From assembly GCA_016861245.1 (NCBI GenBank), contig BOKZ01000001.1, positions 551,006 to 615,005 on the forward strand: 64,000 nucleotides of DNA. The letters run 5' to 3'. Shown here piece after piece: positions 2-58,309 of this stretch (positions are counted from its first letter, which is position 1; the number at the start of each line of letters is the position of its first letter). The DNA is from Patescibacteria group bacterium. GTDB taxonomy: Bacteria; Patescibacteriota; UBA1384; 2-12-FULL-50-11. The translations under genes were made by a program, and so were the position numbers. The notes under the pieces are model-generated. The model had not been told where the DNA came from. It did no database searches and saw nothing but the letters and a program-made list of their open reading frames with translations.

Positions 2-1966
2 TTTATCGAAACTCCGTACCGTAAAGTTGAAGTTAAAGATGGCAAAGCCAAAATCACTAGTAAAATTGATTATCTCGATGCCTATAACGAAGAGAAGTAC
101 ACGCTAGCGCCGTTCTCAACCAAAGTCGATAAAAACGGTTACATTACTGGCAATAAAATCGTCGCCCGACGCAACGGTGAGCCGGTTATCGAAGCTGTCA
201 CAAAAATTGATTACGTTGACATCTCACCGCAACAGGTCGTTTCGATCTCAACTGCCTTAATTCCGTTTGTCGAACACGACGAAGCTGTCCGAGCCTCGAT
301 GGGATCGAACATGCAACGCCAAGCCGTACCACTCGTTAAGCCGCAAGCTCCAATTATCGGAACAGGCTTAGAAGGCGCAGTTAAAGATTCTGGACAACTA
401 ATGGTAGCCGATGCTGATGGCGTGGTTACCTACGTTGACGGTGAGAAGATTACAATCAAAACCAAAAATGGCGATAAAACCTACGAACTCTTAAAGTTCG
501 TTCGCTCTAACCAAAGTACCTGTATTAACCAGCGACCAGCAGTGGCGCTCGGCGATAAAGTCAAGGCCGGTCAGGTGATCGCCGACTCAAGCGCATCTGA
601 CGACGGAGAATTAGCAATCGGTCAAAACGTCACCGTCGCTTACATGAGCTGGGGCGGTTACAACTACGAAGACGCTATTATTATTTCCGAACGCCTCGTT
701 AAAGAAGATCGCTTTACCTCGATTCACGTTGAGAAATACTCGTGTGAAGTCCGCGACACTAAACTCGGACCAGAGCTGGTAACGCGTGATATCCCGAACG
801 TCGGTGATGAAGCGCTGTCGAACCTTGACGAACAAGGCATTATCCGTATCGGCGCTGAAGTCGGTAGCGGTAGTATCTTAGTCGGAAAGATCACCCCACG
901 CGGTGAGACGGAACTAACTGCCGAAGAGAAACTACTTCGCGCGATTTTCGGCGAAAAAGCTAAAGATGTTAAAGACACTTCGCTTCGTTTGCCTCACGGT
1001 GAGCGCGGCAAAGTTGTCGAAGTAAAAGTTTTCTCCAAAGGTAACGGCGACGAACTACCAGCTGGTGTTTATCAGCAAATTGAAGTTTCGGTAGCACAGC
1101 TTCGAAAGATTACAGTTGGAGACAAGATGGCTGGCCGACACGGTAACAAAGGCGTTATCTCGCGAACTCTGCCGGAAGCCGACATGCCGTTCCTACCAGA
1201 CGGAACACCAGTTGATATTATCCTCAACCCGCTCGGTGTTATCTCGCGTATGAACCTTGGACAAATTCTTGAAACTCATCTCGGATGGGCTGCTGACAAG
1301 CTCAACTATAAGGTTGCTTCACCGGCGTTCTACGGAACACCTGTTACTGAAATTGAAAAAGAACTTAAAAAAGCCGAGCTACCCGATGACGGTAAGATTC
1401 AGCTTCGCGACGGACGTAACGGAACCGAGTACGATCAGCGAACAACGGTTGGAACTAAGTACGTTCTTAAGTTGATCCACCTAGTTGACGACAAGATGCA
1501 CGCTCGTTCAACTGGTCCGTACTCGATGGTTACGCAACAGCCGCTCGGTGGTAAGGCACAGTTCGGCGGTCAGCGATTCGGTGAAATGGAAGTGTGGGCG
1601 CTCGAAGCGTACGGCGCTGCTCACTCGCTCCAGGAAATCTTAACGATTAAATCCGACGACGTAATCGGACGCGCCAAAGCATACGAGGCGATTATTAAGG
1701 GCGAAGAAATTCAGAAACCTCAAATTCCAGCCTCGTTTGCAGTGTTAGTTCGCGAGCTTCAGAGCCTTTGCTTAAACGTCGAAGTAATCGAAACAGAAGA
1801 CAAATTGAAAGAAATAGAAACAACTCGTTCACTTCTACAGAGCCAGAGTACTCCAGCCCAGTCTATCGATGAGATCGTTAACGCTGAAGTATCTGAGGCT
1901 ACTGTTGAAACCGAAGAAGTTGAAGAACCAGCCGCTCAACCGGTTGCAGAGAAGGAGGACCAATAA
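2..1966 (+). CDS. rpoB: DNA-directed RNA polymerase beta subunit, C-terminal part (5' end lies outside the window)
   Basis: Frame open from window edge; ...[16 protein letters not shown]..., ...[32 protein letters not shown]... beta-subunit motifs; stop overlaps rpoC ATG (TAATG). Confidence 0.95.
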
Positions 1967-46525: not shown

Positions 46526-47509
46526 ATGCTAACACCGGAAACGCAGTTCGGTCCAAAGAGAAAAAAGCGCTTACCACTCGTGCTCATTATTCTTATATCT
46601 CTATTTTTGGTGCCAGCAGCTACCAATAATATCGAAGCTACCACCGACACTATTACGTTGCCAGACATTTCTGTACAACTCTCCGATACAACTAGCTATC
46701 TCTCAGTTAAGGATGGTACTCGTAGGCCACTTGTTTACGCGAAATCGGTGTTACTAATGAACGCTGAAACTGGAGAAGAATTATGGTCTGATAACGCCGA
46801 CGAAGTGGTGGCAGTCGCCTCAACAACCAAAATGACAACCGCATTAACTGCTCGCAAATTACTTAAACTAGATGAAGTTGTTACCGTCACACGATCGTCT
46901 GTGTTAGTCGCAGGATCAAAAATACAACTCGCAGTTGGCGAACAAATTACGGTGGAGAACTTACTAAAAGGATTATTAATACAATCCGGAAACGACACAG
47001 CGTTTGCGTTGGCCGAGCATTACGGCCAGAAGCACGGCGGTGATTATAAACTGTTTGTCAGCGAAATGAATAAGTTTTCAGAACAAAATAATCTGATGCT
47101 CTCTAAGTACAACGACCCAGCAGGACTAGACGATGAGGTCGGCCGCTCGACTGCTCGGACACTTGCTCACACCGCTAGATTATTACTACGTGATCCGGTC
47201 TTATCTGAAATCGTGCGGACACCGACTGAGATAATCTATTCAGTCGATAATAAGTACTCACACGAGCTAAAAAACTCTAACCGCTTACTATTAGCCGACA
47301 CTCCATACTACATGCCTGGTGCCATTGGTATAAAAACTGGGTTCACTCACGGCGCCGGTCACTGCTTGGTGGCTGGGTATAAAACATCGGTCGGTACCGT
47401 GATCGGCGTAGTATTAAATACGAACGAATACACTATTACTGCCTCTGCGGCAGAGATGAAGAAACTCTTCCAATGGGCTGAGAACAATGTTCTTGAGAAA
47501 AGCTACTAA
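46526..47509 (+). CDS. serine-type D-Ala-D-Ala carboxypeptidase (PBP5/6-like)
   Basis: SxxK (ASTTKMT), SxN (QSGND), KTG (IGIKTGFT); N-terminal signal/TM. Confidence 0.75.
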   Translation: MLTPETQFGPKRKKRLPLVLIILISLFLVPAATNNIEATTDTITLPDISVQLSDTTSYLSVKDGTRRPLVYAKSVLLMNAETGEELWSDNADEVVAVASTTKMTTALTARKLLKLDEVVTVTRSSVLVAGSKIQLAVGEQITVENLLKGLLIQSGNDTAFALAEHYGQKHGGDYKLFVSEMNKFSEQNNLMLSKYNDPAGLDDEVGRSTARTLAHTARLLLRDPVLSEIVRTPTEIIYSVDNKYSHELKNSNRLLLADTPYYMPGAIGIKTGFTHGAGHCLVAGYKTSVGTVIGVVLNTNEYTITASAAEMKKLFQWAENNVLEKSY

Positions 47510-47584
47510 TCAACCAGGGTATTGACAATACTTAGAATGAGTATAGTAATAAGTGATTAGAAGTAATTACAAAAGTGTTAATAA

Positions 47585-48292
<708 letters not shown>

Positions 48293-48309
48293 ATAACTTA
48301 AAACTCAAC

Positions 48310-48337
48310 AAAAAAAGACCCAACCGGGTCTTTTTTT
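48310..48337. terminator. bidirectional intrinsic terminator between convergent genes
   Basis: AAAAAAA-GACCC-AACC-GGGTC-TTTTTTT. Confidence 0.7.
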
Positions 48338-48338
48338 G

Positions 48339-49052
48339 TTATTTATCAGCAATAAATTTTTGCCAAGCCGCGAGCGCGTTGGCGGCAGCGATCTGTTCGG
48401 CTCGTTGTTTTGAGGAGCCCTGTCCCTCAGCGATTAGTTTTGCCTTGGCGTATACGCCGACGGTGAACGTTTTATTATGGTCAGGACCTTCGTCTTTGAT
48501 AACTCTATATTCGGGCGTAACGCTTAGTGCTTCCTGTGAAAGTTCCTGTAAATGCGACTTTGGATCGATGTATAATTTCTTCTCAATAATCTCTGGTAAT
48601 AGACTTATGAGATGCTCTTGAATGAACGTAGTAGCAGCTGTGTAGCCCCGGTCGAGGTAAATCGCTCCAATAATAGCTTCAACAGCGTTTGCGAGTATTA
48701 AATTACGCGCCCTGCCGCCGCTTTTTTCTTCGCCCTTGCTCATCCGCAGTATCGAACCAACACCGAGATCAATCGCAACTTTCGCCAGGACTTCGCCCTT
48801 AACGATTGCGCTACGCCAGTTTGTTAGCTCACCTTCAGGATTTGGAAAGTTCTTGTAAAGGTATTCTGTTACAACCAATTCAAGCACAGCGTCGCCAAGA
48901 AATTCCAGCCGCTCGTTATGTTCTTGCGATTTATCGTTCGTTTCGTTTAAAAACGAACGGTGCGTCAGCGCAATTTGGAGTAACTGCGGGCTTTTAAAGC
49001 TGACGCCGATTTTCTTCTCAAATTCGGTGAGGTCACTTAGCTTCGGGTTCAT
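48339..49052 (-). CDS. rnc: ribonuclease III
   Basis: ERLEFLGDAVLELVVTEYL signature; dsRBD C-terminus. Confidence 0.92.
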   Translation of the reverse strand: MNPKLSDLTEFEKKIGVSFKSPQLLQIALTHRSFLNETNDKSQEHNERLEFLGDAVLELVVTEYLYKNFPNPEGELTNWRSAIVKGEVLAKVAIDLGVGSILRMSKGEEKSGGRARNLILANAVEAIIGAIYLDRGYTAATTFIQEHLISLLPEIIEKKLYIDPKSHLQELSQEALSVTPEYRVIKDEGPDHNKTFTVGVYAKAKLIAEGQGSSKQRAEQIAAANALAAWQKFIADK

Positions 49053-49488
49053 CAGTGGGTTTTATTTCTTCTTCGACGTAGCGGTCGCTGTTGCGATAAA
49101 GTGTTCCCAGTACGCCGTTAATAAACTTCGACGAGTTCTCGCCACCAAACGTCTTTGCAATCTCAACTGCCTCGTTAATAGCAACTTTTGGCGGAATGTC
49201 CTCGTCTTTTAGTAGCTCGTAGGCCGCTAAACGCAAAATACTTTTATCGATAATTGAAATTTGATCGAGCGGCCATTCCGGCGCTGCATCGGCAATAAGT
49301 TGATCGATCTCTTCTTTAAATTCAACCGTTCCTTCTACAACACGGTGAACGTAATCTACGTCCACATCTTTTTTTACCGGCTCCATCACACGATCAGCGA
49401 TTTCAACGATAGTTTGATTCTGATGGAAGTCCCACTCGTAGAGCGACTGCATGGCAATCGTTCGCGATAGGTGGCGGTTTACCGACAT
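49033..49488 (-). CDS. nusB: transcription antitermination factor NusB
   Basis: 151 aa NusB-like. Confidence 0.85.
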   Translation of the reverse strand: MSVNRHLSRTIAMQSLYEWDFHQNQTIVEIADRVMEPVKKDVDVDYVHRVVEGTVEFKEEIDQLIADAAPEWPLDQISIIDKSILRLAAYELLKDEDIPPKVAINEAVEIAKTFGGENSSKFINGVLGTLYRNSDRYVEEEIKPTDEPEAK

Positions 49489-49490
49489 CG

Positions 49491-49703
49491 TTATTTAGAT
49501 TCTTGATCTAAGACGATTCGTTTGGTTGGCGCGCTCTGAGTAACTGACTTACCGTTATAAAAACCGCAATGCGGGCAAACAACGTGAGGAAGCGCAGGTT
49601 TCTTGCAGTTAGTGCAAGTTGTTACTTCCAAATCAGTTGCCTTGTACTGGGCTCGACGTAAATTTGTTCGAGTTTTGGATAACTTTTTCTTTGGCTCTGC
49701 CAT
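49491..49703 (-). CDS. rpmF: 50S ribosomal protein L32
   Basis: MAEPKKKLSKTRTNLRRAQ...CTNCKKPALPHVVCPHCG zinc ribbon. Confidence 0.85.
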   Translation of the reverse strand: MAEPKKKLSKTRTNLRRAQYKATDLEVTTCTNCKKPALPHVVCPHCGFYNGKSVTQSAPTKRIVLDQESK

Positions 49704-49727
49704 TGTTTATATAGTATACAGCAGTTT

Positions 49728-52547
49728 CTACCCTGAAACAATGAGATTAAGCACTTCACCGGGCTTATAAATACGCTTAATAATGGGGCGATTGAGTAGC
49801 GTTTTCTCAACTTGAGGATCTTGTAGCGCGGCAGAAACTGCTGACTCTTCGTCATTAGCGGTAAGTTCAACAGTGGCAATAAACTTCTGGTTTATGAGCA
49901 CTTTAATTGTTTTTAAGCGCTCAATAGTCGTTGCCTTTGGCCAGCTTGCCGCAAACACCGACCCCGGATAATTAGAACTAAACGATTTCTCCCAAAGTTC
50001 CTCCGCCAGAAACGGGTAGATAGGGGAGAGAGTAATAATAAATTTCTGGAAATCGCCGCGAGAAATAGTTTCAAACTTCTCCCAATTATTTATTAATTTC
50101 ATCGCCTCGGCGACTACTGTATTAAGCCTGAATTCAGCGATCATCGGTTCGATAGATGCTAAATAATTATTCAACTCATCGCTCGGCTTGGCTGAATCGG
50201 ATACTTTTTCTACAAGTTTATACAGCCGAATCAGGAAACGATGAATGCCGCTGATGCCGCGCGGATTCCATTCGACGTCAATCTCCATCGGACCCATAAA
50301 CAGCTCGTAACCACGCAGTGCGTCGGTACCGTAATGCTCAATAAGCGGATCTGGTGATACAACGTTCCCCTTGCTCTTACTCATCTTACTGCCGTGTAGG
50401 TTAACCATGCCGATGTTGTAGAGCTGCATGAACGGCTCGGTTATCTTTGCGTCAATGTAACCGTGCTTAGCCAAAAAACGAGTAACAAATCGCGCGTACA
50501 ATAAATGAAGCGTCGCGTGCTCGATACCGCCGATATACAAATCAACTGGCAACCAATCATTAACTGTTTTTTTATCAAACGCTTGCTTTTCGTCGGTAGG
50601 GGATAGGTATCGCAAAAAGTACCACGACGAGTCGACAAAGGTGTCTAGAGTGTCGGTGTCGAAGTACCACCCCTTGCCGTAGAGCGTTTCGGCGCGTTCT
50701 TTATATTCTGCCGAGCGAGCAATCGGACTTTCGCCGCCTGGCAGAAAGTCGACGTCTTCAGGAAGTCTAAGCGGTAAATGCTCGTCTTTAACAGGGTGTG
50801 GCTGTCCCTGTGGATCGTAAACGATCGGAATCGGCGCACCCCAATATCGCTGACGACTTACTAACCAGTCCCTCAGACGATACGTTGTAACGGCTTTCCC
50901 AAGTTTTTTCTTTTCAAGATCGTTCGTTATTTTTTCTGATGCTTCGTCGCTGCTTAATCCGGAGTACGAACCAGAATCAGTCAAACGACCTTTGTCGGTG
51001 TAAATTTGCTTATTAACCAGGAAGTGAAATGAGAGAATGTGCGACTCGTCTACAATTAAACGCTCGACCTCAGATTTAGTTAGCCACTCGATCTTAAATT
51101 TATCGATCTCGTTGTCTTCTAATTTTGTTGGGTCTTGCTTTTTACTTTTTAACCTAAAGTGAAGCCCCGTAACGTCAATAATCCGATTAACACCCTTTGA
51201 GTAAGCGCGGTAATGGTGGTGTAGCGTGCCGGTCTGCCCGATTAGCTCTAAGTCAGTGTAACCAGTTTCTTCAGCAATTTCGCGTCGAGCTGTTATTTCC
51301 GCATCTTCATTATTATCTCTACCACCCCCGATAAAAAGTCGACCTCCAAGCTCTTTTCCCCAATTAAGCGTTAAGAATTTGCCGGTAGTAGGGTCTTCAA
51401 CGATCGCGATAATGCTTTCACGAAATTCCTCGTTATCTAATACTTCACCGGTTTCAGGCTCGATTACTGGTTTAATCGGTAGTTTGTGTGTAATTGCGAA
51501 TTGGTAATCACGCTCATCGTGAGCCGGCACGCACATCACCGCCCCAGTGCCGTATTCTAATAACACGTAATCAGCTACGTAAATTGGAATTTCTTTATTG
51601 GTTAGCGGGTGGATTGCGAAACTACCGGTTTCGTAGGCTGTTTTTTCCGACTCTTTAGCTTGGGCGCGATCGACATTAGTTTTAGCAGATACCGTTTGTA
51701 GATACTCCTGAAAGCCGTCGCTACGCTCTGGTACTACTAACTCTTTTGCCAGCTGGTGTTCAGGCGCTAACACAATCGCGGTTACGCCAAAAATCGTATC
51801 GATCCGAGTAGTGAATACCGGTATCTCGCTTGCTGAATCTTTAATTTTAAAGGCGAGCTCAACACCGACTGATTTACCGATCCAATTGCGTTGCAGGCTT
51901 TTTACTCGCTCCGGCCATTTCACCTGCTCCAACCCGTCGATTAGTTCTTGTGCGTACTCGGAAGTTTTTAAGTACCACTGCGAGAGCTCTTTCTTGGTTA
52001 CTTTGGCGCCACAGCGATCACAACAACCGTTAACTACTTGCTCGTTTGCTAATACAGTCTGATCGTTCGGACACCAGTTCACGAGCGATTTTCGCTTTTC
52101 GGCCATACCGTGTTTGAAAAACTGCAAAAATAGCCATTGCGTCCAGCGGTAATACTCTGGATCAGACGTAACTACGCGCTTTGACCAGTCGAAACATGCA
52201 CCGAGCTGATTAAGTTGTTTTGTAAACGATTCTATTGCGTTGTCGGTAAACTTTTTCGGGTGTGACTTATGTTTGATGGCCGCATTTTCAGCCGGCAAAC
52301 CGAAGGCATCGAAACCCATCGGATGAAGTACGGTCTTTCCCAGTAACATCTGGTAGCGTGCATAAAAATCGCTCATAACGTATCCTCGCCAGTGACCGAC
52401 GTGCAAACCGTCACCAGAAGGATACGGGAACATGTCTAGGCAATAATATTTGTCTTTGCTCGATAAATCGGCAGTGGAAAGTTTATTTTTTTCCCAAACA
52501 TCTCGCCATTTCTGCTCTATTTTTTGATGATTATAGTGACGATCCAT
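49728..52547 (-). CDS. leuS: leucine-tRNA ligase carrying an inserted Nudix hydrolase domain
   Basis: 939 aa; HIGH (HVGHWRGY), KMSKS, CP1 editing domain ...GTGAVMCVPAHDERD; extra about 130 aa with perfect Nudix box between CP1 and YRLRDW. Confidence 0.93.
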   Translation of the reverse strand: MDRHYNHQKIEQKWRDVWEKNKLSTADLSSKDKYYCLDMFPYPSGDGLHVGHWRGYVMSDFYARYQMLLGKTVLHPMGFDAFGLPAENAAIKHKSHPKKFTDNAIESFTKQLNQLGACFDWSKRVVTSDPEYYRWTQWLFLQFFKHGMAEKRKSLVNWCPNDQTVLANEQVVNGCCDRCGAKVTKKELSQWYLKTSEYAQELIDGLEQVKWPERVKSLQRNWIGKSVGVELAFKIKDSASEIPVFTTRIDTIFGVTAIVLAPEHQLAKELVVPERSDGFQEYLQTVSAKTNVDRAQAKESEKTAYETGSFAIHPLTNKEIPIYVADYVLLEYGTGAVMCVPAHDERDYQFAITHKLPIKPVIEPETGEVLDNEEFRESIIAIVEDPTTGKFLTLNWGKELGGRLFIGGGRDNNEDAEITARREIAEETGYTDLELIGQTGTLHHHYRAYSKGVNRIIDVTGLHFRLKSKKQDPTKLEDNEIDKFKIEWLTKSEVERLIVDESHILSFHFLVNKQIYTDKGRLTDSGSYSGLSSDEASEKITNDLEKKKLGKAVTTYRLRDWLVSRQRYWGAPIPIVYDPQGQPHPVKDEHLPLRLPEDVDFLPGGESPIARSAEYKERAETLYGKGWYFDTDTLDTFVDSSWYFLRYLSPTDEKQAFDKKTVNDWLPVDLYIGGIEHATLHLLYARFVTRFLAKHGYIDAKITEPFMQLYNIGMVNLHGSKMSKSKGNVVSPDPLIEHYGTDALRGYELFMGPMEIDVEWNPRGISGIHRFLIRLYKLVEKVSDSAKPSDELNNYLASIEPMIAEFRLNTVVAEAMKLINNWEKFETISRGDFQKFIITLSPIYPFLAEELWEKSFSSNYPGSVFAASWPKATTIERLKTIKVLINQKFIATVELTANDEESAVSAALQDPQVEKTLLNRPIIKRIYKPGEVLNLIVSG

Positions 52548-52630
52548 TACCTGTAAGTATATCTGTAACTAAAAAAACTGCCTAGCAGTTGCGAAGTTTT
52601 TAAACGAGGTTAAAGTAGGGGAGAGGAGTA

Positions 52631-52798
52631 ATGGAAAATATTAATCAATTTCTCGATTCACCGATGTTACGCTCAATAGCGGGTGGGGCGATAATTTTTA
52701 TTGTCGGATTAATTTTTCTTAAAAATCAAATTGTTAAGTTACTTATTCTTACAGTGTTAGTTGCCGCTGCGATCTTCTTCTACAACAACTATCGATGA
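52631..52798 (+). CDS. small membrane protein (55 aa, 2 TM)
   Basis: strong RBS GGGGAGAGGAG; stop overlaps next ATG (ATGA). Confidence 0.5.
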   Translation: MENINQFLDSPMLRSIAGGAIIFIVGLIFLKNQIVKLLILTVLVAAAIFFYNNYR

Positions 52799-54087
52799 GG
52801 AAAAATTGGGGTTGGGTTCTCGTAATTGTTACGGCGCTTTTTCCGATAGTTCTCTGGATGTTGGCGGCTCCGATAAACACTAGATTCACCTCAGCGAGCG
52901 TTAGTATACTAAGCCTCTCTCAAATTTGTGCGCTTACCGGCGCGTCATTCTTTGCCTGGAACTTTATTTTAGCTGCGCGGTTACGGTGGTTGGAAAGTGG
53001 TTTCGGTGGATTAAATAAAGTCTTTGTCGCTCACCACACGTTTGGCGGGGTTGCGTTTGTTCTACTGCTTCTGCACGCAATTCTTGTTATGGCGCAATAT
53101 CTGCCGATTTCGATCTCGCTCACGGGAGAAATGTTAATTGACGTCTCCGATTTGTCGAAAAACCTCGGTCGCTTGACGCTTGGCATTATTATGACGGTTC
53201 TTATTATCACTTATTACTTTCCGCTCAAACACAACATCTGGAAGTGGACGCATCAGATTATCGGAGCAGCGTTATTTACCGGTTTTGCGCATGTTTTTAT
53301 CGTCCCGAGCGACGTCGCGAACTACTTGCCGTTACGATACTGGATGTTGGGAATACTGCTCTGTGGAATCATTGCTTATTGCTACCGGGTACTATTTGGT
53401 AAGTATCTTGTGTCGCGCTACAAATACACAGTTACCGATATTAAAAAGTTCCCAAACAATATTATGGAGATTGTACTAACGCCGACCGCCGGCTCTATGC
53501 AGTACAGACCAGGGCAATTTGTTTTTATTAGTTTTATCCAAAACGGAATCACTACCGAATTCCACCCATTTTCCATTACCTCCGATAGCAGCTCAAAACA
53601 ACTCTCAATAGGAATTAAGCGGCTCGGCGACTACACTGAAACACTTTCTAGTTTGGAACGGGGCACAGAAGCAAAAATTGAAGGTCCGTTCGGTCGTTTT
53701 TACATACAAAAAAATCATCACGCCGACCAAATCTGGGTCGCGGGCGGAATCGGTATTACGCCGTTTTTGAGTATGATTCGCAGTCAAAAAGTAATCGATG
53801 GCGGTAAAGTTTGGTTATTCTACTCAGTTAACACCATCGACGAAGCGGTCTTTCTTCCAGAACTTATTGCCTACGCAAAAGAAAATGAAGATTTTATATT
53901 AATCCTTCACGAAACTAAGCGAAACGGTTACATTAGCGCCGAAATTATTTCTAAAAAAGTGGGGGAACTGACGAATAAAGAGATCTTCCTCTGCGGTCCG
54001 CCACCGATGATGAAGTCGCTTCGTGAACAATTTGTTTCAATTGGCGTTAACAACAATGTAATTCATTCAGAGGAGTTTACGCTCTAA
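52795..54087 (+). CDS. ferric reductase/NOX-family membrane flavocytochrome (FRD TM domain + FAD + NAD(P)-binding)
   Basis: 430 aa; TM His pairs (HHTFGGVAFVLLLLH), HPFSITS FAD motif, GGIGITPF NAD motif. Confidence 0.7.
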   Translation: MRKNWGWVLVIVTALFPIVLWMLAAPINTRFTSASVSILSLSQICALTGASFFAWNFILAARLRWLESGFGGLNKVFVAHHTFGGVAFVLLLLHAILVMAQYLPISISLTGEMLIDVSDLSKNLGRLTLGIIMTVLIITYYFPLKHNIWKWTHQIIGAALFTGFAHVFIVPSDVANYLPLRYWMLGILLCGIIAYCYRVLFGKYLVSRYKYTVTDIKKFPNNIMEIVLTPTAGSMQYRPGQFVFISFIQNGITTEFHPFSITSDSSSKQLSIGIKRLGDYTETLSSLERGTEAKIEGPFGRFYIQKNHHADQIWVAGGIGITPFLSMIRSQKVIDGGKVWLFYSVNTIDEAVFLPELIAYAKENEDFILILHETKRNGYISAEIISKKVGELTNKEIFLCGPPPMMKSLREQFVSIGVNNNVIHSEEFTL

Positions 54088-54172
54088 TGTTACAACGAAT
54101 TATCGATATTACCTTAGCAATCTATATATTGTTTACAATAATATTTATTTTAATCGCAGTGCTGTAAATCTG

Positions 54173-54245
54173 TGGACCGTACCGGGTTCGAACCGGTGAC
54201 CTCTTCCATGCCATGGAAGCGCGCTACCAGCTGCGCCAACGGCCC
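54173..54245 (-). tRNA. tRNA-Ala (anticodon GGC)
   Basis: cloverleaf derived by hand; G3:U70 Ala identity pair; anticodon loop ATGGCAT; T-arm GGTTCGAAC; CCA not encoded. Confidence 0.85.
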
Positions 54246-54272
54246 GATGTTGGAAATTATACCAGAGAAAGC

Positions 54273-55871
54273 TTACAGATTCACCGCTGCGGCCGGTTGT
54301 TGGACTGGAACAAGCAAAGTTTTTCCTGTCATCTCCGGCGATGGCGGTAACCCAAGAATATTTAGAATAGTCGGCGCAACATCAGCCAAAGTACCGCCGT
54401 CACGTACTTGCAGACCAAGCGCCTCCTGACCGGTAATAAGAAACGGGACGGGGTTACTGGAATGCTCGGTGTCTGGTTCACCAGTTTTGGGATTAACCAT
54501 CTGTTCGGCGTTGCCGTGATCGGCCGTAACGATAAGTAGGCCGTTAGTTTTTCTAATTTCCTCGTAAATTCTGGTAAGTCCGGCATCAACTGCTTCGCAT
54601 GCTTTTATCGCTGCACGTAAATTGCCAGTGTGGCCAACCATATCTGGGCAAGCGTAATTAAGAATAATAAAGTCGTAGTTATTGAGATTTTTCAGTACTG
54701 TGTCTGTAACCTCGACGCTTGCCATCTGCGGAATTTGGTCGTAACTGGGTACTTTCGGCGACGGAACAACGATCCGATCCTCGTTTTTATACGCTTCTTC
54801 GTGCCCGCCGTTAAAGAAGTAGGTAACGTGGGCGTATTTTTCCGACTCGGCGACGTGAAGCTGTTTCAAGTTAGCAGTTGAGAGAATATGCGAAAGCGGC
54901 TGGCTGACGTTTCGCGGTTTAAACGCGACTTCCATCGGTAGTCCTTCTTGATAATACGTAAAACCAACGAAATAGAGGTTCTTACGCACAACTTTGCGGT
55001 TAAAGCCATCGAAATCTGGCTTAACAAATGTTTGGGTCAGCTCACGTGCTCGGTCGCCGCGGAAATTAAAGAAGATAATTGAATCACCGTCTTGTATCGG
55101 CCGATAGCTGTTATTTGCGCCTTGGACAACCGTTGGTGGGATAAACTCGTCCGAATAACCATCGCGATAAGCAGCAGCCACCGCCGCTTCGGCCGTTGGC
55201 GCAACCGGACCAACACCCTCTGTCATTGCTCGGTAGGTTTTCTCGATGCGCTCCCAACGGTGATCGCGATCCATCGCATAGTACCGCCCAGAGACCGTAC
55301 AGATAGCCCCAAACCCGAGTTTAGATAAATACTCGTTAACTCTCGATAAATGACTCTCTGCATCAAAGGGAGGGGTATCGCGACCGTCGGTAATCGCGTG
55401 GATACAGACGTTTGGCATTTCCAGCGTCTTTGCCATATCTAATAATGCATAGAGATGGTCGACATGGCTATGAATACCGCCATCGCTCACTAAACCAACT
55501 ATATGAACGTTTTTACCGTTCTTTTTTGCTTGGTTGAAAGCTGTAACAAGCGGCTCGCTTTTCAGAAACGAACCGTCTTTAATTGCTGCTGTAATTACTG
55601 GTAACGATTCTAGAACGATCTGTCCTGAACCTATATTCAAATGCCCAACCTCGGAGTTACCGCGCTCATTAACTGGTAGGCCTACCGCTTCACCAGAAGC
55701 CTGTAAGATTGTGTGAGGGTAAGATTTGGTTGCCATATTGAAGAACGGCGTCTTCGCTAACGAAACCGCGTTGCCGCCCCAATTTGGAGCAACGCCCCAT
55801 CCGTCGATAACGGCTAGTACGACTGGTTTCGGCCTACTGCTTTGCGGCATTGCCAGACAATTCTCGTTCAA
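54273..55871 (-). CDS. gpmI: 2,3-bisphosphoglycerate-independent phosphoglycerate mutase
   Basis: 532 aa iPGM. Confidence 0.9.
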   Translation of the reverse strand: MNENCLAMPQSSRPKPVVLAVIDGWGVAPNWGGNAVSLAKTPFFNMATKSYPHTILQASGEAVGLPVNERGNSEVGHLNIGSGQIVLESLPVITAAIKDGSFLKSEPLVTAFNQAKKNGKNVHIVGLVSDGGIHSHVDHLYALLDMAKTLEMPNVCIHAITDGRDTPPFDAESHLSRVNEYLSKLGFGAICTVSGRYYAMDRDHRWERIEKTYRAMTEGVGPVAPTAEAAVAAAYRDGYSDEFIPPTVVQGANNSYRPIQDGDSIIFFNFRGDRARELTQTFVKPDFDGFNRKVVRKNLYFVGFTYYQEGLPMEVAFKPRNVSQPLSHILSTANLKQLHVAESEKYAHVTYFFNGGHEEAYKNEDRIVVPSPKVPSYDQIPQMASVEVTDTVLKNLNNYDFIILNYACPDMVGHTGNLRAAIKACEAVDAGLTRIYEEIRKTNGLLIVTADHGNAEQMVNPKTGEPDTEHSSNPVPFLITGQEALGLQVRDGGTLADVAPTILNILGLPPSPEMTGKTLLVPVQQPAAAVNL

Positions 55872-57051
55872 TCACCAATAACCTGCGGTATTTGCTCATT
55901 CGCTCCGGGTGAGAATCGTTCGGCGCCCCTGTTTTTATAAATTGAGCCCCAACTCCAACGGCAAAATCTGCAATAAAATCATCGAGCGTCTCGCCGGAGC
56001 GGTGAGAGATAATATTGATGTAGCCGGCTTGGCGGGCGATATCAACAACTTCCATCGTCTCGGTGACACTACCAATTTGATTAAGCTTAACTAATATAGC
56101 GTTAGCTGCGTTGGACTCGATACCTTTTTTGAGTCGATCCGGATTGGTAGCAAATACGTCGTCGCCAACAAGCATTAGTTTTTTCGTGCTCGGGTTTGAT
56201 TGCTCCATCTCTTTATAAAACTCAGCCCACGAAGCCCAGTCGTCCTCCGGAAACGGATCTTCGATCGATAGAACTGGAAAATCTCTCAAAATGCCCAAGT
56301 ACCGTTTTGGAGAAATCTCAAAAGTTGGCGGCAAACTCGAAGCAGCTACATCAAGCGCTAGCGATACCTCATCCCAAGGCTTATACCCAGATTCTTTAAT
56401 GGCTTTAACTAAGTAATCAAATGCCATCTCGTTTGTGTCTAAATTCGGTGCGTAACCGCCTTCGTCACCAGTTGGCAGAAAAACTGACTCCTGTTTCAAC
56501 AACTGTCCGAGCGTACTAAAAACCAACTTTCCAGCGGAAAGCTGGTTGTGATACCCATCTACACGGTCGGGGATAACCATGAACTCTTGAATGTCTAAGT
56601 TGTTGTCGGCGTGTTTACCGCCGTTAATGAGGTTGAACATCGGGACTGGAATCGTAAAACCAGTTCGATTATCTAATTCTCCAATATATCGGTAGAGCGG
56701 CACACCTTTTTCCATAGCTGCAGTTCGAGCCACAGCCATCGACACGGCTAATATCGCGTTAGCACCGAGATTTGATTTGTCAGGAGTACCGTCGAGCTTA
56801 ATCATTATCTGGTCGAGACCGCGTTGATCGAAGACTTCTTTTCCGAGTAACGCTGGAGCAATTTTTTGTTTAATATTCTCCACGGCCTGCGCCGGCTCTA
56901 CTACTTTAGCTTCGAACGCAGATTTTGAGGCGCCGGCCGGAACCGCTGCTGAACCGACTTTGCCGGTATCAGTCTTAACGGTAGCTTGAACGGTATCGTC
57001 GCCGCGTGAATCGTGAATAACTTCGCCGATAACTTCTACAATTTTTGCCAT
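55834..57051 (-). CDS. eno: enolase
   Basis: 405 aa; enolase signature region. Confidence 0.95.
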   Translation of the reverse strand: MAKIVEVIGEVIHDSRGDDTVQATVKTDTGKVGSAAVPAGASKSAFEAKVVEPAQAVENIKQKIAPALLGKEVFDQRGLDQIMIKLDGTPDKSNLGANAILAVSMAVARTAAMEKGVPLYRYIGELDNRTGFTIPVPMFNLINGGKHADNNLDIQEFMVIPDRVDGYHNQLSAGKLVFSTLGQLLKQESVFLPTGDEGGYAPNLDTNEMAFDYLVKAIKESGYKPWDEVSLALDVAASSLPPTFEISPKRYLGILRDFPVLSIEDPFPEDDWASWAEFYKEMEQSNPSTKKLMLVGDDVFATNPDRLKKGIESNAANAILVKLNQIGSVTETMEVVDIARQAGYINIISHRSGETLDDFIADFAVGVGAQFIKTGAPNDSHPERMSKYRRLLVIERELSGNAAKQ

Positions 57052-58067: not shown

Positions 58068-58105
58068 AGTTCTACAGTACTATGTGTCTCGGGAGTAGGG
58101 AAGTG

Positions 58106-58178
58106 TGGACCGTATCGGAGTCGAACCGACGACCTCTACAATGCGAATGTAGCGCTCTACCAGCTGAGCTAACGGCCC
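58106..58178 (-). tRNA. tRNA-Ala (anticodon CGC)
   Basis: hand-folded; G3:U70; anticodon loop TTCGCAT. Confidence 0.85.
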
Positions 58179-58224: not shown

Positions 58225-58307
58225 GCCCGCGTGGCGGAACGGTAGACGCGGTGGACTCAAAATCCACTAATCGCAAGATTGTAGAGGTTCAAGTCCTCTC
58301 GCGGGCA
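58225..58307 (+). tRNA. tRNA-Leu (anticodon CAA), class II with long variable arm
   Basis: anticodon loop CTCAAAA; variable arm TAATCGCAAGATTGTA; T-arm GAGGTTCAAGTCCTC. Confidence 0.85.
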
Positions 58308-58309
58308 CG

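Follow-up and report, generated by a model that had tools for sequence, protein, structure and literature searches.

A complete Nudix hydrolase domain nested in the CP1 editing domain of a Patescibacteria leucyl-tRNA synthetase

We describe here a leucyl-tRNA synthetase (LeuRS) in which a complete Nudix hydrolase domain is nested within the CP1 editing domain. The gene, leuS, lies in a 64,000-nucleotide stretch of DNA from a Patescibacteria group bacterium (GenBank assembly GCA_016861245.1, contig BOKZ01000001.1, positions 551,006 to 615,005 of the forward strand), hereafter called the window, to which all nucleotide positions refer unless another locus is named. LeuRS-Nudix is a lineage-wide trait of Patescibacteria, present in hundreds of them, and we tentatively suggest that the inserted domain may destroy dinucleoside polyphosphates of the Ap4A type where they are made. 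An initial annotation of the window had claimed that a complete Nudix domain is embedded in this LeuRS and had proposed a profile scan, a structure prediction and a survey of orthologues as checks, and the profile match, the predicted fold and the survey all bear the claim out. The parts of the gene on which the argument rests are the following.

49728..52547, minus strand: leuS, bacterial-type LeuRS of 939 aa with a nested Nudix domain (open reading frame, TIGR00396 and PDB match)
51438..51890, minus strand: first part of the CP1 editing domain, residues 220-370 (PF13603)
51009..51437, minus strand: Nudix hydrolase domain in a surface loop of CP1, residues 371-513 (~143 residues)
51258..51326, minus strand: Nudix box GGRDNNEDAEITARREIAEETGY, residues 408-430, the catalytic loop-helix-loop (exact motif match)
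51081..51221, minus strand: residues conserved in the subfamily downstream of the box, HHHY at 443-446, K451, E480 and W488 (56-sequence alignment)
50916..51008, minus strand: last part of the CP1 editing domain, residues 514-544, after the insert (PF13603 after in-silico excision)

In a scan of NCBIfam the window LeuRS scored 927.5 bits against the TIGR00396 leuS_bact equivalog, above the cut-off of 548.4, and its top sequence match in the PDB is the Thermus thermophilus LeuRS (E 1.5e-193). Residues 4-370 align with T. thermophilus residues 3-369 and residues 514-716 with 375-578, which leaves 143 residues (371-513) standing where the T. thermophilus enzyme has a 5-residue loop. Insert-less orthologues have a loop of 5-15 residues at the same point, between 'LPIxxVI' and 'xPYxGxGxLxNSG', and all LeuRS in the PDB align with a gap at window residues 371-513, so that no solved LeuRS has the insert. 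The initial annotation had put the insert between the end of CP1 and the catalytic core, and this placement was wrong. In the native protein the PF13603 match is split, with residues 220-373 accounting for profile positions 1-150 of 185 (207.8 bits), while removal of residues 371-513 in silico yields a single stretch over positions 1-184 of 185 (214.5 bits). Since excision gives one contiguous CP1 match, the Nudix domain is, on this sequence evidence, nested inside CP1, itself an insertion in the Rossmann fold.

The profile scan of the whole LeuRS gave a PF00293 match at residues 378-495 with 41.7 bits against a gathering threshold of 21.1 (E 1.5e-10), and the excised insert alone scored 46.3 bits; it is the sole Nudix-like sequence in the 64-kb window. 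Full-length LeuRS was modelled by AlphaFold2 with a 68-sequence alignment, giving a mean pLDDT of 91.1 and a pTM of 0.81, and 10-residue blocks over the insert and both linkers score pLDDT 88-97; modelled alone, the insert reaches a pLDDT of 94.9 and a pTM of 0.89. Strands are predicted at residues 374-385, 390-395, 406-409, 433-448 and 453-466 (both long) and 485-489, and helices at 416-428, which carries REIAEE, 491-497 and 501-510. As modelled, the insert is a standard Nudix alpha/beta/alpha sandwich with the box on a loop-helix-loop, and it is predicted to fold as an independent domain. Its GC content, 0.427, is slightly under that of the rest of leuS (0.458). The possibility of an intein was considered and rejected: the junctions (...GEVL/DNEEF... 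and ...FLVNK/QIYT...) have neither an N-terminal Cys or Ser nor a C-terminal His-Asn followed by Cys, Ser or Thr, those of the homologues are equally non-canonical, and the fold is Nudix rather than Hint.

The Nudix box was correctly located by the initial annotation at residues 408-430 (nt 51258..51326, minus strand) and follows the pattern G-x5-E-x7-R-E-U-x-E-E-x-G-U exactly, the last U being a tyrosine (Y430) in the window protein. Conservation was counted over 56 insert-bearing LeuRS with ~45-98% identity to the window protein. G408, E423, E427 and G429 are present in all 56 of them, as is Y or F at position 430, while E426 is kept in 54, R or K at position 422 in 49 and the first glutamate of the box, E414, in 40; one subclade has a box shorter by one residue. 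Outside the box, W396 and L466 are each kept in 55 sequences and H503 in 50; position 446 is aromatic and K451 and W488 are present in every sequence, with E480 in 54. By analogy with Nudix enzymes in general (PMC5389931), E480 is a candidate extra metal ligand and Y446 and K451 are candidate X-loop residues. The conservation of E423, E426, E427, G408 and G429 is the pattern of an enzyme and not that of a decayed or purely structural domain, and the metal-binding glutamates are under purifying selection; the Nudix domain thus appears to be catalytically competent. It has also to be considered that the domain has no catalytic role and acts as a nucleotide-sensing, structural or tRNA- or protein-binding modulator of LeuRS, as NrtR and AraR do. 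We regard this as very improbable, since at least 54 of the 56 divergent LeuRS keep each of these five residues, and no copy in the multi-copy LeuRS has lost the catalytic motif.

PF00293 was also found in 86 of the 120 best LeuRS matches, the named carriers among these 120 including Berkelbacteria, Paceibacterota, Moranbacteria, Yanofskybacteria and Minisyncoccia, and a 939-aa protein 98% identical to the window LeuRS (P0003) represents 18 sequences on 6 contigs. When one genome per GTDB species was scanned with the insert alignment, at least 140 relatives were confirmed, and at 75 of the 80 GTDB species loci kept the Nudix domain is flanked by LeuRS sequence within a single open reading frame. 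An exhaustive profile search of cluster representatives gave 6297 matches at E<=1e-3, 448 at E<=1e-10 and 125 at E<=1e-30, and every one of the long matches scanned with Pfam was a LeuRS. These figures come from the full-length and exhaustive searches; a word-indexed search with the insert alone returned 2 fragments only. The survey of orthologues thus places the architecture, which is real and widespread, well beyond the window genome. It also deals with the misassembly that the initial annotation had named among the findings that would overturn its claim. An assembly chimera or a frameshift artefact joining a Nudix gene to leuS is so improbable that we reject it: the reading frame is unbroken, the two halves of CP1 flank the insert, the architecture recurs in at least 86 independent protein clusters and at least 75 species genomes (most of them Patescibacteria, the others gut genomes labelled Bacilli), and the 98%-identical protein is found on 6 contigs.

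LeuRS-Nudix is also carried by gut or rumen metagenome-assembled genomes labelled Bacilli, Tenericutes, Mycoplasmatota, Erysipelotrichaceae or 'Clostridium sp.' (L008-L050, ~30 loci, L066 and P0085), one of which, L066, is a 1.53-Mb chromosome (CP091739.1). In a neighbour-joining tree the LeuRS of these genomes fall into two clades, one of them large and the other small, both nested among Patescibacteria sequences, which could reflect horizontal transfer of leuS or wrong labels. Many Nudix-bearing LeuRS (P0026, P0031, P0084, P0085, P0087, P0118 and P0120) bear the NCBI name 'class I tRNA ligase family protein' and nothing more specific, probably because the insert disturbs naming.

The site of insertion varies between LeuRS proteins. 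In window numbering, the domain follows residue ~370 in the window LeuRS and most others, residues ~207-209 in P0123, P0124, P0125, P0126 and P0129, often as two tandem copies, and residues ~238-247 in P0130 and P0136, and it lies between ~615 and 630 in P0133, P0264 and P0175. Two or three copies of one subfamily are present in P0123, P0124, P0125, P0129, P0130, P0133, P0136, P0175 and P0264, and the strongly matching copies in these multi-copy LeuRS all keep E-[IV]-x-E-E-x-G-[YF]. Judged from the placement of the copies, LeuRS has captured this Nudix subfamily more than once: three or four sites have been used, and a protein carries between one and three copies.

The insert has been lost as well as gained. 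In the neighbour-joining tree, 12 LeuRS without the insert (788-819 aa) occur as isolated cases among LeuRS that have it, and a vestige of the N-terminal linker of the insert, 'EPGIYRKD', is still present in the insert-less P0035. Three insert-less proteins, P0011, P0043 and P0070, are encoded at the same leuS locus as the window protein (L095, L096 and L097/L098 compared with window 46526..57051), with a shared gene order of enolase, 2,3-bisphosphoglycerate-independent phosphoglycerate mutase (iPGM) or ferric reductase, then leuS, nusB, rnc, a mechanosensitive (MS) channel and an S11 peptidase, and no Nudix gene was found within 4 kb of these three. Because of this synteny the insert is a presence/absence polymorphism at one orthologous locus, and the idea that the insert-less relatives are paralogues is rejected. 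We also considered a rule by which insert-less genomes keep an adjacent free-standing Nudix gene; it is true of L090-L092 and fails for P0011, P0043 and P0070 within 4 kb.

Identity in the LeuRS core and identity in the insert are weakly correlated (r = 0.31, 1540 pairs). The proteins P0010 and P0028 have cores that are 80% identical and inserts that are 23% identical, and in a sliding window their identity is 80-100% before, 10-27% over and 77-97% after residues ~346-530. This sharp drop points to recombinational exchange of the Nudix cassette together with about 20 flanking CP1 residues. Further mosaic leuS pairs, with a swap over the same window residues ~346-530, are P0071 and P0077, and P0005 and P0027; the identity pattern of these pairs, 80-100% on either side and 10-27% across the Nudix domain, indicates exchange between two deeply divergent types of insert. 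The window insert is 53-61% identical to inserts of distant LeuRS and 26-28% identical to a second insert type in its own clade.

Members of the same subfamily also occur as free-standing proteins of 154-182 aa, which score 135-157 bits against the insert profile, and the gene contexts of nine were examined. One such gene precedes a Nudix-bearing leuS by 2 bp, another an insert-less leuS by 3 bp and a third valS by 5 bp, the product of the third being 51% identical to the window insert; a fourth follows argS at a distance of 12 bp and precedes ileS by ~600 bp, and a fifth belongs to a metG ... leuS cluster. Another, P0170, is found 4 bp downstream of fpg/mutM in three assemblies (L084-L086, 5001..5513 and equivalents), a position that may mean that some members, at least, act like MutT, and three of the nine contexts are without an aminoacyl-tRNA synthetase (aaRS) gene nearby. 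Direct adjacency to a class I aaRS gene was thus seen in four of nine contexts, compared with ~5% expected by chance if ~20 aaRS genes among the ~800 genes of a small Patescibacteria genome are assumed, a rough guide in that the cases are not all phylogenetically independent. Taken together, the repeated capture by LeuRS, the free-standing copies beside several class I aaRS genes and the conserved catalytic residues suggest a function tied to aaRS chemistry and not a chance placement.

Hydrolases of other kinds were seen in class I synthetases. Besides the Nudix domain, P0014, P0018, P0027, P0097, P0242 and P0126 carry an alpha/beta serine hydrolase of ~180 aa (PF06821/PF12697) with a GHSLGG nucleophile elbow, placed in the loop of CP1 that immediately precedes the T-rich motif, after window residue ~239 (about nt 51831). 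An esterase placed beside the editing pocket could serve as a second deacylase. The 1330-aa P0159 carries, in addition to its Nudix domain, a full Ham1/ITPase domain (residues 984-1167, PF01725, E 3e-58) between the catalytic core and the anticodon-binding domain. At locus L087 (5094..8498, plus strand) an isoleucyl-tRNA synthetase (IleRS; TIGR00392, 864 bits) has a PF00300 His_Phos_1 histidine phosphatase inserted at residues ~520-690, and its gene adjoins argS, a free-standing Nudix of the LeuRS-insert subfamily, a second Nudix, a dUTPase and a thymidylate kinase. Hydrolase insertions are therefore not confined to LeuRS.

As to the kind of Nudix enzyme, no curated Nudix subfamily was matched in the NCBIfam scan of the window LeuRS: the best match, to the RppH model NF001938, scored 15.6 bits with a cut-off of 116, and NudB was likewise below threshold (13.9 bits, cut-off 103). 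A free-standing homologue from L083 had no NCBIfam match at all. The insert profile gave weak matches to PDB sequences (E 2e-7 to 1e-5), namely the AvrM14 decapping effector, the uncharacterised MutT/nudix proteins 2azw, 3smd and 3fk9, the Ap4A hydrolases 3i7u and 1f3y, NudB and Dcp2. In a Foldseek search with the predicted structure of the insert the best E-value was that of 2azw, and the best TM-scores were those of Escherichia coli RppH (0.73-0.75) and the Aquifex Ap4A hydrolase (0.70-0.73). The insert leans, no more, to the group of Nudix enzymes that act on ApnA, polyphosphates or RNA 5' ends. A conserved tyrosine in the X-loop downstream of the box marks the ApnA hydrolases (PMC5389931). 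In the column of Y446, 16 residues past the box, the residue is tyrosine in 34 of the 56 homologues and phenylalanine in 22. Y446 lies roughly where the marker tyrosine would be expected and may be the equivalent of Tyr87 of NUDT2.

Another reading is that the domain acts, in the manner of RppH, Dcp2 or AvrM14, as a pyrophosphohydrolase or decapping enzyme on the tRNA acceptor end or on RNAs near CP1, where it would strip 5'-triphosphates, NAD caps or Np4 caps. We consider this quite improbable. Mature tRNA 5' ends are monophosphates, the RppH model is missed by the wide gap given above, and the varied sites of insertion (~207, 240, 370, 620) are unlike what a geometry-dependent action on bound tRNA would call for; a small-molecule by-product would better explain why free-standing copies adjoin the genes of several different aaRS.

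Nucleotides of the Ap4A family are classically made by aaRS and classically removed by Nudix enzymes. We favour, tentatively and as something short of probable, a mechanism of local scavenging in which the Nudix domain of LeuRS would hydrolyse a diffusible nucleotide by-product of aminoacylation at its source. Nucleotides of this kind would arise when the enzyme-bound aminoacyl-adenylate reacts with ATP or another nucleoside triphosphate (NTP); the likeliest substrates would be the dinucleoside polyphosphates Ap4A, Ap3A and Ap4N, and the products a nucleoside monophosphate and an NTP or nucleoside diphosphate. The putative activity, this candidate substrate class and the presumed benefit are preferred because such compounds are a by-product shared by aaRS that Nudix enzymes destroy and because of the structural lean to the ApnA group, and the free-standing copies beside leuS, valS and argS lend them indirect support. 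As the insertion sites are variable, it would seem to be tethering, with the proximity and co-expression it brings, that matters rather than a precise channelling geometry.

Several points weigh against this proposal. LeuRS is a modest producer of Ap4A in comparison with LysRS or PheRS, and to our knowledge ArgRS makes no Ap4A. The insert matched no curated Nudix subfamily, the RppH model included, and its marker column holds phenylalanine, not tyrosine, in 22 of 56 homologues. The insert is dispensable in some lineages, because syntenic orthologues have lost it without an adjacent replacement. Some free-standing copies adjoin fpg/mutM or are without an aaRS gene nearby, and the Ham1 ITPase insert in the relative P0159 points to NTP house-cleaning.

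This last activity is the basis of the main rival explanation, in which a house-cleaning Nudix carried on LeuRS would clear damaged or non-canonical nucleotides such as 8-oxo-(d)GTP, 8-oxo- or 2-OH-ATP and ITP-like compounds. The domain would reside in LeuRS because its CP-type loops permit insertions and because an essential gene with constitutive expression would guarantee that the domain is made in streamlined genomes; LeuRS may in addition gain a loose benefit from having damaged ATP analogues kept off its adenylation site. The presence of a Ham1/ITPase domain (PF01725, E 3e-58) together with Nudix in P0159 speaks for it, as do the position of a free-standing copy 4 bp downstream of fpg/mutM, which encodes an 8-oxoG repair glycosylase, and the clustering of free-standing copies with dUTPase, thymidylate kinase, a YfbR-like 5'-nucleotidase and TatD. 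The varied sites and copy numbers and the repeated clean loss of the insert suggest no strict geometric coupling, and several of the PDB profile matches are MutT/NTPase entries. However, pure hitch-hiking leaves the repeated link to class I aaRS (the sites in LeuRS and the adjacency to leuS, valS and argS) unexplained, and no MutT-type curated family was matched. On balance we judge house-cleaning to be possible but rather unlikely.

A broader and speculative reading is that class I aaRS of Patescibacteria are platforms for exchangeable 'antidote' hydrolase cassettes that destroy toxic nucleotides at the target enzyme, which we hold to be improbable. The modules concerned would be one to three Nudix domains, the alpha/beta serine hydrolase and the Ham1 ITPase in LeuRS and the histidine phosphatase in IleRS, and their targets would be aaRS by-products or aminoacyl-adenylate-mimic inhibitors released by competitors; the evidence covers the cassette behaviour and says nothing on inhibitors. 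An arms race of this kind would explain why the domain was captured at several sites and duplicated in tandem, why syntenic orthologues differ in having it, and why divergent Nudix alleles were exchanged by recombination. Anti-phage defence or a phage origin was also considered and rejected: there was no PADLOC match, and the PHROG matches were to generic Nudix only.

Taken singly, the bacterial LeuRS and the Nudix hydrolase that make up LeuRS-Nudix are well known, and it is the combination that is new. The known Nudix ApnA hydrolases and RppH (E. coli RppH/NudH, Aquifex aq_158, T. thermophilus Ndx1, and lupin and human NUDT2) are free-standing and 16-22% identical to the insert, which by contrast is nested in an aaRS; the Enterococcus faecalis MutT/nudix protein (PDB 2azw), 17% identical, is free-standing and uncharacterised and so uninformative on the substrate. 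In NadM-Nudix, a union of NMN adenylyltransferase with ADP-ribose pyrophosphatase (PDB 2qjo), the two enzymes are fused end to end and not nested, the partner is a different enzyme, of NAD metabolism, and the Nudix belongs to a more distant subfamily than the LeuRS insert. A parallel in design is the IleRS with an N-acetyltransferase (NF040702 ileS_w_GNAT, a model that was itself among the NCBIfam matches), a class Ia synthetase which like LeuRS-Nudix has an extra catalytic domain in its connective-polypeptide region; the CP1 editing domain, too, is an accessory enzyme embedded in a class I aaRS. The inserted enzyme differs, however, being a Nudix pyrophosphohydrolase in LeuRS and a GNAT in IleRS, and whereas IleRS-GNAT has a curated NCBIfam model, LeuRS-Nudix has none and matches generic leuS_bact only. 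The initial annotation was not aware of an earlier description of the arrangement, and we likewise found no account of it in the literature searched, the match in a PfIleRS paper being an entry in the reference list, or in a 2017 review of the Nudix clan, in which the words tRNA and synthetase are absent (PMC5389931). Proteins of this architecture abound in public databases under labels that go no further than 'leucine--tRNA ligase' or else 'class I tRNA ligase family protein'. We call LeuRS-Nudix undescribed rather than unseen because it is visible in databases through automatic Pfam hits.

If the role in Ap4A removal is true, a natural, lineage-wide covalent union of an aaRS with a Nudix enzyme would show directly, on evolutionary grounds, that this by-product chemistry is of consequence in vivo, and it offers a test system consisting of one polypeptide, a Nudix box that can be point-mutated and natural insert-less orthologues as controls. 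The CP1 region of an essential, conserved enzyme is seen to accommodate a complete additional enzyme, or two to three of them in relatives. Modular evolution of this sort, with gain at several sites, recombinational swapping and loss, was not found described for aaRS in the searchable literature. For the LeuRS of Patescibacteria the insert is, further, a marker trait, and it may help to trace gene transfer to the gut lineages labelled Bacilli.

The remaining signatures of the window LeuRS, with invariance counted over 68 aligned LeuRS, are as follows.

52392..52403, minus strand: HIGH signature of the class I catalytic site, HVGH at residues 49-52 (H49, G51 and H52 invariant)
51795..51812, minus strand: T-rich motif TTRIDT of CP1, residues 246-251 (T246, T247, R248 and T251 invariant)
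51507..51524, minus strand: AHDERD of CP1, residues 342-347 (H343, D344, R346 and D347 invariant)
50373..50387, minus strand: KMSKS signature, residues 721-725 (M722, S723 and K724 invariant)

With HIGH, KMSKS, the T-rich motif and the editing Asp all intact, the host LeuRS looks fully functional. The leucine-specific domain is absent, residues 716-720 pairing with T. thermophilus residues 578-636 (window 50373..50400 region), and insert-less relatives (788-819 aa) also appear to be without it. The Nudix domain as a stand-in for this domain is therefore rejected, since the insert-less relatives, about as long as the window protein minus its insert, show no such domain either. Divergently adjoining leuS is a gene for a 430-aa ferric-reductase/NOX-like membrane flavoprotein (PF01794, PF08022 and PF00175; 52795..54087, plus strand), an arrangement kept in L095, and genes for tRNA-Ala(GGC) (54172..54245), tRNA-Ala(CGC) (58105..58178) and tRNA-Leu(CAA) (58225..58308) lie near leuS.

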